Below, in pieces: positions 1 through 43,113 of a stretch of 43,113 nucleotides of DNA. Location: sequence record MW406976.1; one strand, 5' to 3'. How positions within the stretch are numbered: position 1 is the first letter of the stretch; each line of letters opens with the position of its first letter. The DNA is from Pseudomonas phage HX1. Made by a program: the position numbers and the translations under genes. A model generated the notes under the pieces. It ran no database searches and was not told the origin of the DNA. It saw only the letters and a program-made list of their open reading frames with translations.

Positions 1-560
1 ATCCTGGCGGGAGTGTCAACCCTGCGGTGGCGTGGCTGCCCATCGGCTCATACTCAGCGCCCTGCGGTGGGCTACCAGCGCCAGCCTACGGTCTTCCCTG
101 GCTCTGGCCCTGGCCGCTGGGTACGGGCTGTGCTGCTCATCCTCTGCTGCCCACCTGGCTAGCTTCCTCTGCCATGCTGCGTCGCGCTGGTGCCAGGCTC
201 GCTCGGCTCTGTCCTGTCTGCTCAGCATCCTCTGTGCCTCCTGGGGCCTCTGCCCTCTGGTCTGGTGGTGGTGCGGGAGTGGCTGGCCTTGCCTCTACGC
301 TACGCCTTGCCTCTTGTGCTGGCATTGCCTCCTGGCTCTACCTGGCGTTGCCTGGGTGGTCCTGGCTTTGCCTGGCCACTCCCTCTAGGCCACGTACTCT
401 ACTCGCCTCTACCTGCCTTGTCTAGTCCTGCTCCCTGTCGCTTCCCGGCTCTACCTGTCGCTCCCTGGGGGTGCTGGTCTACCTCCCTGGCTCTGCCTGG
501 GGCGCTGCGCTGGTCCTGCGGTCTTGCCTCGCCACTCCCTCGCCTGCTCGGTCGCACCTG
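1..560. repeat. A-depleted, C/T/G-rich non-coding region with short direct repeats (CTCTACCTG x4, GCCTTGCCTC x2, CCACTCCCTC x2, many CCTGGC); the same composition continues across the window junction at 42980-43113. Likely terminal-repeat/packaging region, present once in this window
   Basis: A is about 5% of the + strand; no ORF with coding-like codon bias; motif repeats spaced at roughly 30-70 bp. Confidence 0.5.
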
Positions 561-574
561 CGGCGCTGATGGAC

Positions 575-602
575 GCCTATTTGTCCATTGTGTGTGACAT
601 AA
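575..602 (-). promoter_or_regulatory. Inverted copy of the phage-promoter-like motif (minus strand reads TTATGTCACACACAATGGACAA), pointing leftward into the A-depleted end region
   Basis: 19 of 21 positions match the + strand copies at 21239, 21458 and 35737. Confidence 0.45.
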
Positions 603-776
603 CCGCAGCCTTAGTGCCACGCGGGTTTCAGGGTGGTGGTCCTGGCTGGGTGGCTGCTCCCTGGGTGGTGGATTTGCGTTACCTGGGAACGATAATCCTG
701 GCTAGCCAGACTAAGCCTCGCACGCGTGGGTCTCTATACGCGTGGGAAGGCTCCAGGGAGCGCCCTGGCGCGGGTA

Positions 777-3141: not shown

Positions 3142-3160
3142 CGACCCTCGCCTACTCCGG
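3142..3160 (+). other. phiKMV-type nick consensus CGACcctcgCCTACTCCGG
   Basis: Exact match to CGACNNNNNCCTACTCCGG; 38 nt upstream of the ATG at 3198. Confidence 0.7.
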
Positions 3161-6792: not shown

Positions 6793-6811
6793 CGACCAGG
6801 GCCTACTCCGG
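6793..6811 (+). other. phiKMV-type nick consensus CGACcagggCCTACTCCGG
   Basis: Exact consensus match; 2 nt after the stop at 6791 and 60 nt upstream of the ATG at 6871. Confidence 0.7.
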
Positions 6812-14721: not shown

Positions 14722-14740
14722 CGACCCTTCCCTACTCCGG
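14722..14740 (+). other. phiKMV-type nick consensus CGACccttcCCTACTCCGG, start of a ~50-bp leader shared with the capsid gene
   Basis: Exact consensus; followed by GCCTTAAATCTTCATCC...GAGAGAGA...ATG, closely similar to 24909-24962. Confidence 0.7.
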
Positions 14741-18785: not shown

Positions 18786-21233
18786 ATGGACCTGATACAG
18801 CAGCAGATCGCCCACGAAGAGGCCCTGGTCGGGGCGGCGCAGAACGACGCCCGCATTGCCTTGGAAAAGGCGATTGCCCAAGGGTCCATCGACCGCATCC
18901 CGAGGGCGCGCATCATGTTGATGCGCATGCTCCCCATCGTGACCGAAGCGATCTTCGCGCACCAGGAAGCGAAGGCGGCGGGGCCGGCAGCAAAGCTGCG
19001 GCACCTGCTGCGGATCATCGACGCCCAGGACCTCGCGGTCATGGCACTGCGGGCCGGGCTGTCGATGCTCATCAACTACCCAACGATCACCGCGACGAAG
19101 TATTACACCCACATGGGTAAGATGCTCTGTCGAGAGATCGAAGTGCGGTTGGCCTTCAAGGTCAACCAACCCTATTACGACCGGACGCTGGACTACCTCA
19201 AGACCAGCAGGACTCGCAGCGTCCGGCACATCCAGAAGACGATGGACGCTCTTCTGGACGCGGTACTGCCGGAAGAGGCACGTATCGACCTGCCGGATGG
19301 CGACTACCTGCGCCTCGGCAAGTTCATTGGTGATCCGCTGATACAGTGCGGCCTGTTCGAGCCGAACCGCTTCACAGGTCGGGGCGGTACGAGCGTCCAC
19401 CTGGAGCCGTCGCCGGAAGCCAAGGAGTTCCTGCAAGACCCTTCGGCGGCGATGACCTGGGGAGGCCCAGGCCGTAGCGTGATGCTGGCACCGCCGCGAC
19501 CATGGAACGACTGGTGTGATGGCGGTTACTACAGCGCTAAGGCGCAGAAGCACCATGTGCTAGTGCGCCGTACCAAGCACCAGACCAAGCGGGCGCGCCA
19601 GATGCAGCTACGCCACCTGGGCCGGGACAAGATGCCCAGGGTGTATGAGGCGGTCAACGCGCTGCAATCAGTGGCCTACGAGATCAACCGCGACGTGTAC
19701 GAGATCATCGAGCGCGTCTTCACCTCCGGCGGCGGCGTGCTGGGTATCCCCCAGCGCACCTACCCGGACAAACCTGAGTTCCCGCTCGGCGACGAGTGGG
19801 CCAAGGAGAACGCCAGTGAACAAGAGCTGGAAGCCTTCAACCGCTGGAAGCGATCCGTCCACCGATGGTACACCGGCGAGCGGGAGCATACCGCCAAGCT
19901 TCGCGAGTTTGCTGCACTCTACCGAGTTGTTCGAGAGCATCATGGCAAGGCAGTGTACTTCCCGATGCACGTTGACTCCCGTGGCCGCATGTACTATTGG
20001 GGCACACCGAATCCCCAGGGGTCCGACATCGCCAAGGCGTGTCTACGATTCCACGAAAAGCGTGCCCTCGGTAAGCGCGGCCTGTACTGGCTCAAGGTCC
20101 ACGTCGCCAACTCCCTCGGATGTGACAAGGTGTACTTCGACGACCGGGCAGCCTGGGTCGATGAGCGATGGGACGACTTCCAGCGAGCACTCGACGAAGG
20201 TCCGGAGAACTATCCGAGTCTCTTCCCGGAAGACGAGTCGCCCCTGTGCGCCATCGCAGGTCTGCTGGAGCTGCGGGCGGCCTACGCATCAGGCCAGCCG
20301 GAGGCTTACCGAAGTGGGTTCATCGTCCACATGGATGCAACCTGCTCCGGCCTCCAGCACTACTCAGCCATTCTCCGAGACGAGATCGGCGGAGCCTACG
20401 TCAACCTGCTGCCACCTGGACTTGCCAAAGCTGACATCTACTCCCGAGTTCTCGGTCTCGTTGCAGAGTCTCTGGCACGAGACAGAGAAAGTGCTGAAGG
20501 CGAGGCTCGGGGCTACGCTGTATTGTGGGATAAGGCTGGTCTATCCCGAAGCCTGACGAAGAAGCCCTGCATGACGCTGGTATACGGCACCACGTTCAAG
20601 GGCGTGGTAGACCACTGCCTGGACTACCTGGACGAGTCCGGCCTGGAGATTCCCGAGGGTATCCCGTCATACCGCCTGGGAAGCTACATGGCAACGCTCA
20701 TACTGGACGCAATTCGCGAGACAGTACCATCGGCAGTCTTCGCCATGGAATGGCTCCAGCGGCTCGCTAAGGCCCTTCCTGACGCATCCAAGGATTTGCA
20801 CTGGATCACGCCACTCGGCATGCAGGTGTTCCAGTCGTACCCGAAGACCGAGGAGGTGCGGGTGAGGCTGCGGGCCGAGGCTGTCGAGTACGTCACCCTG
20901 TACGAGGCCAAGGACGAGCTGGACCCGGTACGCAACGCCAACGGCATCGCTCCGAACTTCGTCCACGGGCTGGACAGCAGCCACCTGGGCCTGACGGCCC
21001 TGGCCTGTGCGGCAGAGGGTATCCCGATCCAGGCCATCCACGACAGCATGGGCACCTATGCGGCGGACGTGGATCGGATGCACGTCCACATCAGGGAGCA
21101 GTTCATCGCCATGTACAGCGGCCCCTGTGTGCTCGTAGAACTGGCAAAACAGCTCGGGATAGAGGCTACCCCGCCCCGGAGAGGATCGTTGAATCTGGAG
21201 GCTGTACGGGACTCCTGGGCGTTCTTCTGCTGA
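18786..21233 (+). CDS. T7-like single-subunit DNA-dependent RNA polymerase, 815 aa
   Basis: Size and position; AGGAGA RBS; located at the end of the replication module as in phiKMV-like phages. Confidence 0.9.
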   Translation: MDLIQQQIAHEEALVGAAQNDARIALEKAIAQGSIDRIPRARIMLMRMLPIVTEAIFAHQEAKAAGPAAKLRHLLRIIDAQDLAVMALRAGLSMLINYPTITATKYYTHMGKMLCREIEVRLAFKVNQPYYDRTLDYLKTSRTRSVRHIQKTMDALLDAVLPEEARIDLPDGDYLRLGKFIGDPLIQCGLFEPNRFTGRGGTSVHLEPSPEAKEFLQDPSAAMTWGGPGRSVMLAPPRPWNDWCDGGYYSAKAQKHHVLVRRTKHQTKRARQMQLRHLGRDKMPRVYEAVNALQSVAYEINRDVYEIIERVFTSGGGVLGIPQRTYPDKPEFPLGDEWAKENASEQELEAFNRWKRSVHRWYTGEREHTAKLREFAALYRVVREHHGKAVYFPMHVDSRGRMYYWGTPNPQGSDIAKACLRFHEKRALGKRGLYWLKVHVANSLGCDKVYFDDRAAWVDERWDDFQRALDEGPENYPSLFPEDESPLCAIAGLLELRAAYASGQPEAYRSGFIVHMDATCSGLQHYSAILRDEIGGAYVNLLPPGLAKADIYSRVLGLVAESLARDRESAEGEARGYAVLWDKAGLSRSLTKKPCMTLVYGTTFKGVVDHCLDYLDESGLEIPEGIPSYRLGSYMATLILDAIRETVPSAVFAMEWLQRLAKALPDASKDLHWITPLGMQVFQSYPKTEEVRVRLRAEAVEYVTLYEAKDELDPVRNANGIAPNFVHGLDSSHLGLTALACAAEGIPIQAIHDSMGTYAADVDRMHVHIREQFIAMYSGPCVLVELAKQLGIEATPPRRGSLNLEAVRDSWAFFC

Positions 21234-21238
21234 GGGGA

Positions 21239-21262
21239 TTATGTCACCCACATAGGAGCAAG
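21239..21262 (+). promoter_or_regulatory. Phage-promoter-like motif TTATGTCACCCACATAGGAGCA
   Basis: One of four copies of TTATGTCAC-M-Y-ACA-NN-GGA; resembles the -17 to +6 region of T7-family promoters; 6 bp after the RNAP stop. Confidence 0.5.
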
Positions 21263-21282
21263 TGCATCCGTCCAAGGCCCTC

Positions 21283-21426
21283 GTAGAGGGGAGCAGGAAG
21301 AGAGAGAGAGAGAGGTCAGGGAAGACCAGAGGGTAGAAGAAGAGTAGAGGTAGAGTAGAAGATGAGACTAGATGACTACGAAGGATTCTAGATAGAATAG
21401 ACTAACCAGCATAGGAGATATGATAG
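21283..21426 (+). repeat. Purine-rich (AG) low-GC segment, including a (GA)8 tract at about 21299-21315, lying between two promoter-like motifs
   Basis: Almost no C or T on the + strand over ~140 bp; GC well below the genome average. Confidence 0.6.
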
Positions 21427-21678
21427 ATGGCTACTATGAAGACCCACCGACCTACGGTTATGTCACCCACAGTGGAAGGATCGAGAACAGGCAAGGGTAC
21501 GGCCCGTCCTGTCACGTTCACCTCTCAGCAGATCGAGTGGTTAGAGCAGACCTTCCCCGAACATCAGATCGGTCCTGGAACCACGATGGAAGACATCCAG
21601 TTCCAGGCCGGTAGGCGAGACGTGGTGCGAGCAGTACGCCTGCGCCGACGCGATGCCATCGCAGTGGAGTTGAAGTGA
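21427..21678 (+). CDS. Small protein, 83 aa, with RHH-like segment (RPVTFTSQQIEWLEQ); translationally coupled to the downstream GNAT
   Basis: AGGAG 9 nt upstream; GTGATG overlap with the next gene. Confidence 0.55.
   Translation: MATMKTHRPTVMSPTVEGSRTGKGTARPVTFTSQQIEWLEQTFPEHQIGPGTTMEDIQFQAGRRDVVRAVRLRRRDAIAVELK
21458..21481 (+). promoter_or_regulatory. Phage-promoter-like motif TTATGTCACCCACAGTGGAAGG (second tandem copy)
   Basis: First 14 nt identical to the copy at 21239; 21 of 24 identical to the copy at 35735. Confidence 0.5.
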
Positions 21679-24908: not shown

Positions 24909-24927
24909 CGACCCTGCCCTACTCCGG
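24909..24927 (+). other. phiKMV-type nick consensus CGACcctgcCCTACTCCGG, start of the capsid-gene leader
   Basis: Exact consensus; downstream GCCTTAAACCCACATCC...GAGAGAGAGA...ATG parallels 14722-14775. Confidence 0.7.
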
Positions 24928-35300: not shown

Positions 35301-36362
35301 GGCGTGTATCAGCTCGCCGAGCTGGCCACGATGGCGCACCGTCAAGGCGTCTTCAACGTCATGAAGGCCATGCTGAACTCCCGCCTGGGAGACTTCGTGG
35401 GCGCCATGCGTCGCGACCCGGACCTCGCTGACGAGATGCAGACCGTCCTCGGCCTGAACCTCGCCAACGATATCCGGATGAAGCCCTGGAAGCGGCAGTT
35501 CGACACCTTCCTGGCCAGCCAAGATACCTTCATGGATCGCTTCCTGCACGCAGGTAAGCAGGCTGTCCCAGTGCTCAACGGCATGAAGTTCATCCACAAC
35601 TGGCAATCCCGTATGAACGCCAACCTCACCTTGAACAAGGTGGCGCGGGCGGCTCAGGGGGACGAAGCAGCCCTTCGCGTGCTCCAGCAGTACGGGAAGG
35701 ATGTGGACTGGACGCCAGTCCTGGCGCGGGTTCGCGGTTATGTCACATACAGAGGAAGGAACGCCCAATCCATGAATTGGGGCGCCTGGAGCCAAGCAGA
35801 CGTGAACACCGTCATGAATACCGCACTGCGGATCATGGACGACTCACTGCTGTATGGTCGAGTCGGTCAGAACTCGGGCTTCGCCCGGTCGCCGGTCGGC
35901 CAAATCCTGGGCCAATTCCGCAGCTTCGTGGCCTTCGCGCACAACAAGCTCCTCCGGGGAACCTACGAGAACTCCGGCGTGCTTGGCGTGGCCTCGCTCC
36001 TCGCATTCCAGTATCCGCTCACAGCGCTGATGATGGGTGCCAAGGCAGCGATCAATGGCAAGTTCGACACCTCTGACGAAGGCATCCGCAAGATGGCCAT
36101 CGACGGCATCGGCTACACTGCCGGCCTGGGCTTCACCGCCGATATGTGGGGTGTGGTCACTGGCCACTCCCGAATGTCTGCTCCGGTCTTCGGACTGGCT
36201 GAACACTCCAACGAAGTGTTCCGAGGCGTTCGAGACCTCGTAACCGGCGACGACCCGGCAGCGGCCACTGGCGATATCGTCAACGGCGCGGCGGGCGCAC
36301 TGCCTTTCGTCAACGTGTTCCCGGCAACCAAGTTGCTGTTGGAATCCATCAAAGGGGAATAA
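32349..36362 (+). CDS. Internal virion / ejection protein C (T7 gp16-like), 1337 aa
   Basis: Size and order. Confidence 0.8.
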   Translation: MAKQFKGRMTPKYPLDQAQLDEAQVQGQLDTVPTVGFDALTGGEIGERNVAAGQRANARELERIVADQELPALDRASALWNQSTLVGRWGDALQLDADLAASSTGEVDPNFDAGTYGVQALQAAGIQPTDNYLQIMARAGNAEDAAYLLSRIQRYEQDEQIVRDNPYWNFAAGMLDPAALAVDAVTFGAGRALRLGRAGMAAAGGAGQVGYVAGLDAAGADVDAGTYIVAGALGAGVGALLGSGAGRIAAEAPTQPHVPEVSAPTVGLPEVAMTAEEAAARGFKAGDVVDLLDEGTVLSRVSAKVEQAEIPAIPRRDTAFGDELHSLSGRKLSEVLDHLKTHAEVPKPLQGIAAKVADTIRTLEGLGQRTAFRVVQGGDTASSAFLKPGTAGIHSTQGLDTLVQVRGSTAPGRVGTNPVTVLHEAVHAATVGVMNAALRNPGAMSPKVAQAMQTLENVRGNVLNALKQDRAAGRQLSEFEETLLAGNSNTLANVKELVAWGLTDTRFQRTLNRLRYSDGGPGLWSRFVEGIRTLLGLRSDADTALSRVLAASETIMEAMPGYTKAQAKWANKGAPVTEEASLETIVRTTRERAREGAGFVNRFFSEADLLAQPGEGARRLLSRLIDDPVRRDGFSTNDNAASYLRRYRNEFEGYVKSYDEMMAKAMAEQGVGLTARALNSRRAMAVRDQLNEQVTRELLRRDREWTAYGSVRVDPNLPPTIKALADRSDEIHGLMGQRAREAGVRGFEDFAPRPGYFHRSWNWSKMAQMDEAAPGLARRAISEAVFRGIPGLERADADTIAQAIVQRARDRATGIRSEFMGAMGVADTAFIRQALEEANVSQAKFDSIMAKIEQKQSDQGTVKYGKGRLSLDMTAEINHNGTVYRVQDLIDRDLDRLMENYAGSMSGRSALARAGMPGDSEIEAFIREYQREAAHLGTDKVQELTGQLRGVFGDFTGNVPREHQLGPVAQRASGLTSATMLGFSGVYQLAELATMAHRQGVFNVMKAMLNSRLGDFVGAMRRDPDLADEMQTVLGLNLANDIRMKPWKRQFDTFLASQDTFMDRFLHAGKQAVPVLNGMKFIHNWQSRMNANLTLNKVARAAQGDEAALRVLQQYGKDVDWTPVLARVRGYVTYRGRNAQSMNWGAWSQADVNTVMNTALRIMDDSLLYGRVGQNSGFARSPVGQILGQFRSFVAFAHNKLLRGTYENSGVLGVASLLAFQYPLTALMMGAKAAINGKFDTSDEGIRKMAIDGIGYTAGLGFTADMWGVVTGHSRMSAPVFGLAEHSNEVFRGVRDLVTGDDPAAATGDIVNGAAGALPFVNVFPATKLLLESIKGE
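35735..35759 (+). promoter_or_regulatory. Phage-promoter-like motif GGTTATGTCACATACAGAGGAAGGA inside the 3' end of the 1337-aa gene, ~600 bp upstream of the tail-fibre genes
   Basis: 21 of 24 identical to the copy at 21456-21479. Confidence 0.45.
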
Positions 36363-42858: not shown

Positions 42859-43113
42859 CACTGGAACTACTGGAATTTTTATTTGTGTGTGGCTGGATTG
42901 GCTGGGCCTGGGCTGGGAGTAGTTACTCCGGGTCCAATTTTGATATCGTCGTGTGAGAACCCTCCCGACTCTGATCAGCCCACCCTTCCCCCGTAGGCCC
43001 TCCGCCTGGTGGGCCATCCCTCGCGTTGCCTGGGTGTTGCTGCCTAGCCTCCTGGGAGCTTCCGGCTTCGCCGGGTGGCGTGGGCTTCCCTGCCCTCGCT
43101 GCCCATTCTACGC

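Follow-up and report, generated by a model that had tools for sequence, protein, structure and literature searches.

The window, i.e. the whole stretch of 43,113 nucleotides from Pseudomonas phage HX1 that was analysed (MW406976.1), constitutes an entire Phikmvvirus genome that shares 99.5% identity with known isolates and whose two ends meet inside the terminal repeat. The locus considered here begins with the gene for a single-subunit phage RNA polymerase (RNAP), annotated as RNA polymerase in relatives, whose C-terminal 399 amino acids are 100% identical to the RNAP of phage RLP and 94-100% identical to Phikmvvirus RNAPs, which marks it as the cognate phiKMV-type enzyme; beyond the genus, identity drops from at least 90% to at most 41%, with no intermediates. 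Since the RNAP gene is the last middle gene here, the promoter site behind it stands at the head of the late structural operon, not of the replication genes. This site consists of two tandem promoters, a leader, a purine tract and an AT-rich block between them, and the small ORF gp27 (Table 1).

Table 1. Features of the late promoter region and related motif copies in the window
Feature	Position	Strand	Remark
Single-subunit phage RNA polymerase gene, 815 aa	18786..21233	+	ORF; last middle gene
First late promoter, LUZ19 P007 equivalent, GATTATGTCACCCACATAGG	21237..21256	+	Start ~G21256, by alignment
Conserved 5' leader with small CCCTC-GTA-GAGGG hairpin	21257..21292	+	Mean pairwise identity 0.93
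Hypervariable purine tract	21293..21372	+	Composition kept, sequence and length not
Conserved island GGTCAGGGAAGACC inside purine tract	21314..21327	+	Candidate pause/termination (3'-end-forming) signal
AT-rich conserved block	21373..21443	+	Stops in three frames, Shine-Dalgarno AGGAGA, gp27 ATG
gp27 ORF, 83 aa	21427..21678	+	PHROG phrog_6575, no Pfam domain
Second late promoter, LUZ19 P008 equivalent, GGTTATGTCACCCACAGTGG	21456..21475	+	Start ~G21475, by alignment
GGTTAGAGCAGACC, island-related, inside gp27	21539..21552	+	LUZ19 T010 equivalent 21559, 84-nt RNA from P008
Third promoter copy, LUZ19 P009 equivalent	35736..35755	+	Inside 1337-aa internal virion protein ORF
Fourth promoter copy, LUZ19 P001 equivalent	585..604	-	Antisense, fires leftward through terminal repeat
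CAGGGAAGACC copy on P001 transcript path, terminal repeat	90..100	-	Motif search
Second terminal-repeat copy, CAGGGAAGCCC	43082-43092	-	Motif search

The preliminary description had drawn attention to two tandem promoter-like 22-mers after the RNAP gene, and these are indeed present: TTATGTCACCCACATAGGAGCA (from 21239, 5 nt beyond the end of the RNAP ORF) and TTATGTCACCCACAGTGGAAGG (from 21458) agree in 14 bases, differ in the next two and then both continue with GGA. The common 14-mer occurs exactly twice in the window and has relatives at 35738(+), with two mismatches, and 589(-), with one; GGTTATGTCACnnACAnnGGA is common to all four copies. The corresponding promoter class is defined by the 20-bp motif 5'-GgtTATGTCACacACAnnGG-3' (LUZ19 P001 and P007-P009), which is matched at exactly four sites in each of LUZ19, phiKMV, LKD16 and the window, the positions being equivalent: a pair immediately behind the RNAP gene, a copy within the structural region and an antisense copy close to the left end. 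The first promoter is invariant in 11 genomes. The spacing of the pair ranges from 180 to 222 nt across the genus; the longer purine tract and (GA)n run of the window account for its 219 nt, compared with 197 nt in LUZ19.

In LUZ19, the start sites of P007 and P008 were mapped by ONT-cappable-seq to 21134 and 21331 (Putzeys et al. 2024, Microlife 5:uqae002; preprint 10.1101/2023.10.13.562163), and Table S6 of the same study (Putzeys et al. 2024) gives the promoter motifs of 16 Phikmvvirus species; PAXYB1 and RLP, which are among them, are ~99% identical to the window over the 2-kb region around the element. Both 20-mers of the window are identical to the P007 and P008 sequences of LUZ19 in that table. 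This sequence identity makes the two 22-mers the known, already published phage-RNAP late promoter pair of phiKMV-like Pseudomonas phages. The call of promoters was thus correct, though not new, and the starts predicted at the outset (21260 and 21479) fall 4 nt downstream of the LUZ19-equivalent ones, as alignment columns place 21134 at 21256 and 21331 at 21475. LUZ19 shares with the window the 20-bp motifs, their four genomic positions and the anatomy of the leader; the differences are at strain level only, and the start sites and 3' ends given here are transferred from LUZ19.

In each of the four genomes examined, which are complete and span the genus, the segments with the most purine and the least GC both fall between the two promoters. 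In the window, the 80 nt at 21283-21362 contain 87.5% purine (genome mean 52%, sd 5.4, z = +6.5; the genome maximum), and the 80 nt at 21334-21413 contain 37.5% GC (mean 62%, sd 5, z = -4.9; the genome minimum), so that a GC content far below the genome mean, as first described, is borne out. By contrast, the '~140 bp of almost pure A/G' was an overstatement: 21290-21430 is 77% purine, and only ~80 nt reach at least 85%. The purine tract, which includes an (AG)8 run at 21299-21314, varies between 42 and 81 nt across all 11 genomes, with a mean identity of 0.51 and a purine fraction of 0.83-0.87. A comparison of phiKMV-like genomes, proposed as a check on conservation, thus finds the promoter motif kept; in the AG tract, sequence and length vary while the purine fraction is held. 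According to nearest-neighbour free energies (hybrid minus duplex), the tract favours RNA:DNA hybrids with z = -3.8 in the window and -4.5 in LUZ19, and the hybrid-over-duplex stability of the first-promoter RNA lies in the top 0.04% and 0.01% of the two genomes, respectively; the hybrid-prone stretch of LUZ19 (21152-21211) includes the mapped RNA 3' end T009 (21207) at its end.

The AT-rich block, in turn, comprises 72 nt with zero indels and an identity of 0.95 among 11 genomes, overlaps the lowest-GC segment, and carries a Shine-Dalgarno sequence (21413-21418) at good spacing from the gp27 ATG, both conserved. Its non-coding part (39 nt upstream of the Shine-Dalgarno sequence) shows an identity of 0.915 versus 0.837 at third codon positions of gp27. 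No small ORF is conserved in the leader, where stops occur in all frames, and no intrinsic terminator is found on its + strand; the hairpin is predicted, but without covariation. A structured non-coding RNA or riboswitch in the leader was considered and rejected (Rfam matches did not exceed noise, the MFE z was -0.27, and covariation was absent). A search of IMG/VR for further diversity returned seven contigs, all of them the same sequenced isolates.

gp27 itself has an N-terminal extension of ~22 amino acids, which is genus-specific and contains the second promoter; its homologues in other genera measure 59-65 amino acids and are devoid of the extension. Transcripts from the second promoter are therefore unable to encode gp27, and LUZ19 transcription units from P008 contain gp28-gp30, not gp27 (Putzeys et al. 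2024). In PHROGs, gp27 falls only into groups without assigned function. The idea that it is a ribbon-helix-helix protein binding TAGA repeats of the AT-rich block was dropped, given no Pfam domain and no significant PDB sequence match.

How general is this arrangement? In KP34 (Drulisvirus) and phiAB1 (Friunavirus), promoters likewise lie at or just past the 3' end of the RNAP gene, one weak and one strong in KP34 and two annotated ones, 34 bp apart, in phiAB1; KP34 further resembles the window in having one promoter within the structural region and another close to the left end. The promoter sequences differ, however, and there is no long purine/AT-rich spacer, which is also absent outside the genus from six phages with phiKMV-type gene order; in the five sampled phages with an annotated first downstream gene, the intergenic regions measure 29-102 bp.

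Within the otherwise drifting purine tract, the island GGTCAGGGAAGACC is identical in 10 of 11 genomes despite variable surroundings; it is missing from one unverified record (Pa-B). In LUZ19, T009 lies 9 nt past the island and ends a 73-nt RNA that starts at P007 (TU015), and a second short RNA of 84 nt runs from P008 to T010 (TU020); readthrough units extend from P007 into gp27-gp29 and from P008 into gp28-gp29 (Putzeys et al. 2024). For the window, the first short RNA is predicted to end at ~21336, judged by the distance from the island, or at 21351, judged by the alignment column, and to measure ~81 nt. The motif CAGGGAAG[A/C]CC is confined, in four genomes, to the P007 leader and the minus strand of the terminal repeat (shuffle expectation 0.05-0.09). 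In LUZ19, the latter site (the CAGGGAAGACC equivalent, at 144-154(-)) precedes the 3' end T001 by 3 nt, so that both unique sites lie shortly (3 and 9 nt) before mapped 3' ends, for which the chance expectation is 0.008. The exact match between the island and the left end of the genome at first resembled chance within a CCAGG-rich repeat family; it was taken as meaningful because of the LUZ19 3'-end data and the replication in four genomes. A short conserved sequence on the non-template strand with 3' ends a few nucleotides downstream is what a specific signal should look like, and these observations suggest that CAGGGAAG[A/C]CC is a polymerase-specific pause or termination signal, an idea built on three 3' ends of one phage and on a motif partly defined after the fact. 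As the other LUZ19 3' ends (T002, T011-T017) share no common motif, such a signal, if real, covers only T001, T009 and perhaps T010. The LUZ19 3' ends could also stem from RNA processing instead of termination.

These features call to mind the class II signal of T7, ATCTGTT, likewise a short conserved sequence on the non-template strand with 3' ends slightly downstream (6-8 nt, compared with 3-9 nt here), and each of the two has one copy in the region of the terminal repeat or concatemer junction. The T7 core together with its U-rich stretch is, however, not found here: CAGGGAAG[A/C]CC is unrelated in sequence to ATCTGTT and has no U-run downstream, even if a weak 4-bp hairpin is possible. It is for these reasons an analogue for a different polymerase and not a member of the T7 class II family.

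Taken together, the site is probably the start module of late (class III) Phikmvvirus transcription, and no replication role would be needed to account for it. The phage RNAP would recognise the tandem promoter pair that lies just behind its own gene and would initiate at ~G21256 and ~G21475, as demonstrated for LUZ19 and deduced for the window from identity of sequence. Some polymerases from the first promoter would stop ~9 nt past GGTCAGGGAAGACC and release the short RNA (73 nt in LUZ19, ~81 nt predicted here), and the remaining ones would read through into gp27-gp30 and beyond, as in LUZ19. Likewise, some polymerases from the second promoter would stop 84 nt downstream, which in LUZ19 is 7 nt past the island-related motif, and the others would transcribe gp28 onward but not gp27. 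The AT-rich block may mainly be the translation-initiation region of gp27, given its stops in all frames, AGGAGA and the ATG at 21427. The purine tract may be a compositionally constrained, unstructured leader with CAGGGAAG[A/C]CC as its polymerase-specific pause or termination signal, and the antisense P001 transcript may make use of the same signal once more, in the terminal repeat. In T7, too, ordinary late promoters that have no origin role, e.g. phi10, are followed by AT-rich leaders, and Friunavirus phiAB1 and KP34-type phages have late promoters in tandem or close to the RNAP gene with no purine/AT spacer. This reading nevertheless leaves three things unexplained: that the purine fraction stays within 83-87% despite drift in length and sequence, that the 39-nt non-coding AT block is more conserved (0.915) than synonymous sites (0.837), and that the extremes of low GC and of hybrid stability coincide at the end of the short RNA.

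Could the same module also serve as a replication origin, possibly the primary one, that depends on transcription? This is a plausible candidate, albeit one less likely than not. The purine-rich RNA of the first promoter would stay hybridised to its pyrimidine-rich template as an R-loop, the RNAP would pause or terminate just past CAGGGAAGACC, at the edge of the most easily melted block of the genome, and the phage DNA polymerase would extend the RNA 3' end, or else the displaced strand would load primase and helicase. Such a scheme joins the logic of T7 phi1.1A/B (promoter plus AT-rich region) with that of mitochondrial LSP-CSBII (premature termination plus R-loop). Each T7 origin needs a T7 promoter and plasmids with a T7 origin require the loss of RNase H (PMC8373140). 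Moreover, four of the five lowest-GC 80-nt segments of T7 begin at most 35 nt downstream of phiOL, phi6.5, phi1.1B and phiOR, of which phi1.1B, phi6.5 and phiOR are named as origins (PMC8373140). At the site itself, phage-RNAP promoters are directed into the region, and the single lowest-GC segment, the only AT-rich region beside any of the four phage promoters, begins 78 nt after the first start site. The promoter-proximal premature 3' end expected of an R-loop-primed origin of the mitochondrial LSP-CSBII or ColE1 type is provided by LUZ19 TU015 as mapped here, the published 73-nt RNA terminating at the boundary of the AT block. Hybrid-favouring sequence is present as well (quantile at most 0.0004), hybrid stability being extreme in both the window and LUZ19, where the stretch ends at T009, and both compositional extremes are kept throughout the four complete genomes. 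LUZ19 DNA replication, furthermore, sets in only once 14 min of a ~25-min cycle have passed, at the time when phage-RNAP transcripts come up, even though the replication genes belong to the middle class. The mitochondrial parallel is close in that a single-subunit RNAP (POLRMT, T7-like) also terminates prematurely ~70-120 nt downstream of its promoter, and in that the hybrid of this RNA with the template is unusually stable, which for the window is a computed property; CSBII, however, acts via a G-quadruplex, with R-loops and RNA-DNA transitions demonstrated (PMC6317783), whereas the window leader is known from its sequence and has no canonical G-quadruplex motif by eye. Against all this stands the fact that each feature fitting an origin also has an explanation in transcription or translation. 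The resemblance to T7 claimed at the outset holds in outline only, namely two tandem promoters just past the RNAP gene (phi1.1A and phi1.1B in T7) beside a very low-GC segment, in phages that have a T7-like replisome in common. The T7 promoters are 75 nt apart and are both followed by an 84-nt AT-rich region (29% GC); those of the window are 219 nt apart, with the lowest-GC segment between them and the second promoter inside the gp27 ORF. In addition, the T7 site heads replication genes and is a proven origin, whereas the window site heads structural genes and is a candidate. At the T7 origin, there is no bias towards purine or R-loops (R-loop z = 0 to -1.4), so that the T7 model does not predict a purine tract, and the tract tolerates indels of 40 nt, besides the unverified record devoid of the island. 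The similar short RNA of the second promoter ends in ordinary coding sequence, the six phages of other genera do without the spacer, and the priming of replication could instead come from four conserved nick sites or from transcripts of the host RNAP. The GC skew is the reverse of what was expected (cumulative maximum at 23.5 kb; left half +0.014, right half -0.015), but is uninformative as an origin test, since it also misses the mapped origin of T7. The searchable literature yielded no mapped origin or replication mapping for Phikmvvirus and no mention of an origin, purine tract or R-loop for phiKMV, although the 2003 and 2006 genome papers may hold an earlier suggestion. Rather unlikely is the more elaborate proposal that the leader is a pause-coupled, R-loop-primed origin whose signal, CAGGGAAG[A/C]CC, halts the phiKMV-type RNAP where the hybrid-prone purine tract ends, beside the most meltable block, so as to yield a primer, and that the copy of this signal in the terminal repeat, on the antisense P001 transcript, pauses the polymerase at the concatemer junction for genome maturation.

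The short RNAs of ~81 nt and 84 nt might themselves be trans-acting regulatory non-coding RNAs, and the LUZ19 study lists both as its only '5'UTR-derived ncRNA candidates' (Putzeys et al. 2024), with which the conserved 5' leader and the island would agree. However, they are listed there as candidates without validation; the folding of the leader is on a par with that of shuffled sequence, with neither an Rfam match nor covarying pairs; the hypervariable tract makes up the body of the first RNA, and gp27 coding sequence the second RNA, all of which makes such a role improbable. Harder still to credit is an intramolecular triplex (H-DNA) formed by a (GA)n mirror repeat, as raised in the preliminary description for the homopurine tract. 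The isolate analysed does have a 21-nt uninterrupted purine run that includes (AG)8. The longest purine runs of LUZ19, phiKMV and LKD16 are 14-15 nt with (GA)2-3, and the (GA)n length varies even among near-identical isolates in a manner resembling slippage. The run is thus lineage-specific, no homopurine mirror repeat is conserved, and H-DNA does not stand as a conserved property of the site.

What does the probable start module of late transcription mean for these phages? Members of the genus, LUZ19 and phiKMV among them, are isolated widely and are candidates for therapy as well as chassis for engineering; the promoter pair is textbook for the genus. A pause or termination signal of the phiKMV-type RNAP would, if real, be a second example of the T7 class II/concatemer-junction logic and a useful orthogonal part for synthetic biology. 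An origin at the head of the late operon, should it exist, would account for the start of replication only in the latter half of infection, and it would be relevant to genome engineering and the design of minimal genomes. And if the leader and the terminal repeat did act together as pause-coupled sites, late transcription, replication initiation and packaging would be linked by one promoter class and one pause motif.

The window is the complete 43,113-bp genome of a podovirus that infects Pseudomonas aeruginosa and belongs to the genus Phikmvvirus; it is opened within the terminal repeat, of which it has one copy (by alignment, phiKMV 128-900 corresponds to window 1-774 and phiKMV 54-127 to window 43040-43113). 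Over the 2 kb around the element, several sequenced isolates match it at 99.5% identity; all 93 phage records matching this stretch come from Pseudomonas. The two 22-mers behind the RNA polymerase (RNAP) gene are where the preliminary description had placed them and share 14 bases, followed by two that differ and then GGA; the 14-mer has exactly two occurrences in the window, with related copies at 35738(+) and 589(-), and the similarity among the four extends to a common GGTTATGTCACnnACAnnGGA. They were rightly read as phage promoters, as they match promoters mapped in phage LUZ19, whose primary transcript 5' ends were determined by ONT-cappable-seq and whose four promoter motifs recur in 15 further Phikmvvirus species (Putzeys et al., Microlife 2024, PMC10914365); the supplement of the preprint tabulates the motifs per genome, including PAXYB1 and RLP, both near-identical to the window. 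Searched with a regex for the motif, the window, LUZ19, phiKMV and LKD16 each have four sites and no more, all at equivalent positions. When the LUZ19 start sites of P007 and P008 are transferred by alignment, the predicted starts are G21256 and G21475, 4 nt upstream of the previously guessed 21260 and 21479. The promoter half of the interpretation is already known: the 22-mers are the established tandem late promoters of Phikmvvirus, here correctly rediscovered. KP34, from a different genus, has an equivalent promoter layout, with in vitro proof for its own enzyme in the KP34 polymerase paper. In the Acinetobacter phage phiAB1, two annotated tandem phage-promoter repeats (TTTGAAGTTACACTTATAGAAGG), 34 bp apart (2225-2285 of the sequence used), directly follow the RNAP gene and a terminator; RNAP-proximal tandem late promoters thus recur outside Phikmvvirus, there without a purine/AT spacer. 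Over its final 48 nt the RNAP gene hardly varies, even at third codon positions (0.98 vs 0.84 in gp27, over a sample of 16 codons only), which may reflect constraint from upstream promoter contacts.

Coordinates of the features discussed (window unless LUZ19 is named)
Feature	Position	Strand	Details
Single-subunit RNAP ORF	18786-21233		815 aa
RNAP gene 3' end	21183-21230		
First late promoter	21237-21256	+	equivalent of LUZ19 P007
Most purine-rich 80-nt window	21283-21362		87.5%, z = +6.5
(AG)8 run	21299-21314		
Conserved island	21314-21327	+	
Lowest-GC 80-nt window	21334-21413		37.5% vs 62%, z = -4.9
Imperfect direct repeat, first copy	21369-21385		TAGATGACTAC-GAAGGA
Imperfect direct repeat, second copy	21424-21443		TAGATGGCTACTATGAAGAC
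gp27 ORF	21427-21678	+	
Second late promoter	21456-21475	+	equivalent of LUZ19 P008
CAGGGAAG[A/C]CC	21317-21327	+	
CAGGGAAG[A/C]CC	90-100	-	
CAGGGAAG[A/C]CC	43082-43092	-	
CAGGGAAG[A/C]CC, LUZ19	21188-21198	+	
CAGGGAAG[A/C]CC, LUZ19	144-154	-	
P007 to T009, LUZ19	21134 to 21207		73 nt, no gene; preprint supplement of PMC10914365
P008 to T010, LUZ19	21331 to 21415		84 nt; preprint supplement of PMC10914365
Hybrid-prone 60-nt stretch, LUZ19	21152-21211		
P001-like antisense path	1-586 and 42960-43113	-	64-68% purine over 500 nt
Exact match to CGACNNNNNCCTACTCCGG	3142-3160	+	
Exact match to CGACNNNNNCCTACTCCGG	6793-6811	+	
Exact match to CGACNNNNNCCTACTCCGG	14722-14740	+	
Exact match to CGACNNNNNCCTACTCCGG	24909-24927	+	

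The repeats, the (GA)8 tract and the low GC content between the promoters were all confirmed, although '~140 bp of almost pure A/G' overstated a genuine purine richness: the span is 77% purine, and only ~80 nt reach at least 85%. Alignment of eleven genomes spanning the genus, mutually 74-99% identical here, splits the interval into four parts. One part, the first promoter with 36 nt of leader, varies very little (identity 0.93). The purine tract varies from 42 to 81 nt, is full of indels and (GA)n slippage and has a mean pairwise identity of only 0.51, and nonetheless no genome departs from a purine fraction of 0.83-0.87; inside it lies a 14-nt island, GGTCAGGGAAGACC, identical in ten of the eleven, the exception being a record marked 'unverified'. 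The AT-rich block is exactly 72 nt long in all eleven, without indels (identity 0.95), its 39 non-coding nt upstream of the Shine-Dalgarno sequence being 0.915 identical vs 0.837 at gp27 third codon positions, and it ends in AGGAGA followed by the gp27 ATG. The second promoter is invariant. The conservation looked for among relatives extends to the promoters and to purine composition, not to the sequence or length of the tract. Promoter spacing is 180-222 nt across 14 genomes, each of which keeps one 60-nt window of 82-90% purine and another of 33-37% GC, and in all four complete genomes the genome-wide extremes of both properties (80-nt windows) fall inside the interval. The spacer is genus-specific: in six phages of other genera that share the gene order, the intergenic regions are short or lack this composition. 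The AT block also contains several (A)TAGA repeats, and an imperfect direct repeat is present, with lower similarity of the first copy in phiKMV and LKD16.

The second promoter lies within the gp27 ORF, in a ~22-residue N-terminal extension that gp27 homologues of other genera (59-65 aa) lack. Its transcripts exclude the gp27 start codon and cannot encode gp27, as the sequence implies and the LUZ19 transcription-unit table confirms, the longer units being P007 to gp27-gp29 and P008 to gp28-gp29 (preprint supplement of PMC10914365). The overlap of the gp27 stop with the gp28 start (TGATG) suggests translational coupling, which would operate only on first-promoter transcripts. In LUZ19 each promoter also yields a short RNA, and these two are the only '5'UTR-derived ncRNA candidates' reported for that phage (PMC10914365 supplement). 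Neither 3' end, T009 or T010, is a predicted intrinsic terminator, and our own search likewise gave no terminator-like site; in the LUZ19 sequence T009 falls 9 nt after the island and T010 7 nt after the related GGTTAGAACAGACC. A structured regulatory RNA is unlikely, because the leader has no Rfam match, displays no covariation and is not more stably folded than shuffled sequence (z = -0.27).

A second occurrence of the island core CAGGGAAGACC, close to the left end and on the minus strand, had been noted independently of the 3'-end tables. In the window, LUZ19, phiKMV and LKD16, CAGGGAAG[A/C]CC is confined to the first-promoter leader and the terminal repeat, in the latter on the minus strand, i.e. 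along the path of the antisense P001 transcript, against a shuffle expectation of 0.05-0.09 per genome. In LUZ19, each of the two unique sites is followed within 3-9 nt by a mapped 3' end (T009 or T001), compared with 0.008 such coincidences expected by chance; the other LUZ19 3' ends inspected have no such motif. The evidence, comprising three 3' ends in one phage (LUZ19), makes the motif a candidate sequence-specific pause/termination signal of the phiKMV-type RNAP, with RNA processing instead of termination as a possible source of the same ends. Class II signals of T7 are sequence-specific elements that terminate transcription 6-8 nt downstream and have one copy at the concatemer junction (10.1101/2021.01.11.426313). 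The candidate signal similarly has 3' ends a few nt downstream and a copy in the terminal repeat; being unrelated to ATCTGTT and lacking a U-run, it would be an analogue of class II rather than a member. The P001-like antisense path is itself purine-rich and includes the windows that favour R-loops more than any others in the genome (z down to -5); exceptionally purine-rich transcripts thus arise from two of the four phage promoters.

Does the purine/AT interval also serve as a replication origin? Such a reading is reasonable and only loosely T7-like, and we regard this putative origin as tentative and rather unlikely. T7 promoters are part of every T7 origin, phiOR and phi6.5 being among the secondary ones, and T7-origin-driven plasmids require RNase H inactivation (PMC8373140). 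In a control scan of T7, four of the five lowest-GC 80-nt windows begin at most 35 nt downstream of phiOL, phi6.5, phi1.1B and phiOR, and the same scan of the window gives a single outlier, 78 nt past the first start site; however, AT-rich leaders also follow ordinary T7 late promoters such as phi10. By nearest-neighbour RNA:DNA hybrid vs DNA duplex stability, the first-promoter transcript belongs to the most hybrid-prone 0.04% of the window; in LUZ19 it belongs to the top 0.01%, and the hybrid-prone stretch there ends at the mapped 3' end, whereas T7's own origin has no hybrid bias (z = 0 to -1.4). A short, hybrid-prone, promoter-proximal RNA recalls primer formation at mitochondrial LSP-CSBII, where a T7-like polymerase stops after ~120 nt and leaves an R-loop (PMC6317783); yet the second promoter gives a similar short RNA with its 3' end in normal coding sequence.

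The layout, previously equated with that of T7, agrees only loosely: the T7 promoters are 75 nt apart with the AT block after them, whereas those of HX1 are 219 nt apart with the block between them and the second promoter in an ORF. The purine tract, moreover, tolerates large indels, and each feature of the interval can also be read as serving transcription or translation. GC skew runs opposite to origin expectation and carries no weight, because the same test also misses the T7 origin. No mapped origin, purine tract or R-loop is connected with phiKMV-like phages in the searchable literature, which does not include the original genome papers. Priming might also take another route, at four conserved nick-consensus sites, the exact matches to CGACNNNNNCCTACTCCGG, whose core CCTACTCCGG at equivalent LUZ19 positions is tied to localized single-strand nicks in the non-coding strand (PMC10914365, citing Kulakov et al.). 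GenBank records of LUZ19, phiKMV and LKD16 still label these sites 'phage-specific promoter'. Just past one of them is T006 (3156), a LUZ19 3' end whose position would fit RNAP run-off at a template-strand nick.

H-DNA formation by the homopurine tract, another earlier proposal, is rejected as a conserved property, since the (GA)8 run and a 21-nt purine run are confined to the HX1 lineage. The analysis adds that the interval has a conserved four-part anatomy, that the 3' end of an already published short RNA coincides with the conserved island and with genome-wide extremes in hybrid stability and GC depletion, and that leader and terminal repeat have in common a motif that is a candidate pause signal specific to the polymerase. 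Together, these make both the origin hypothesis and the class II-like signal directly testable.
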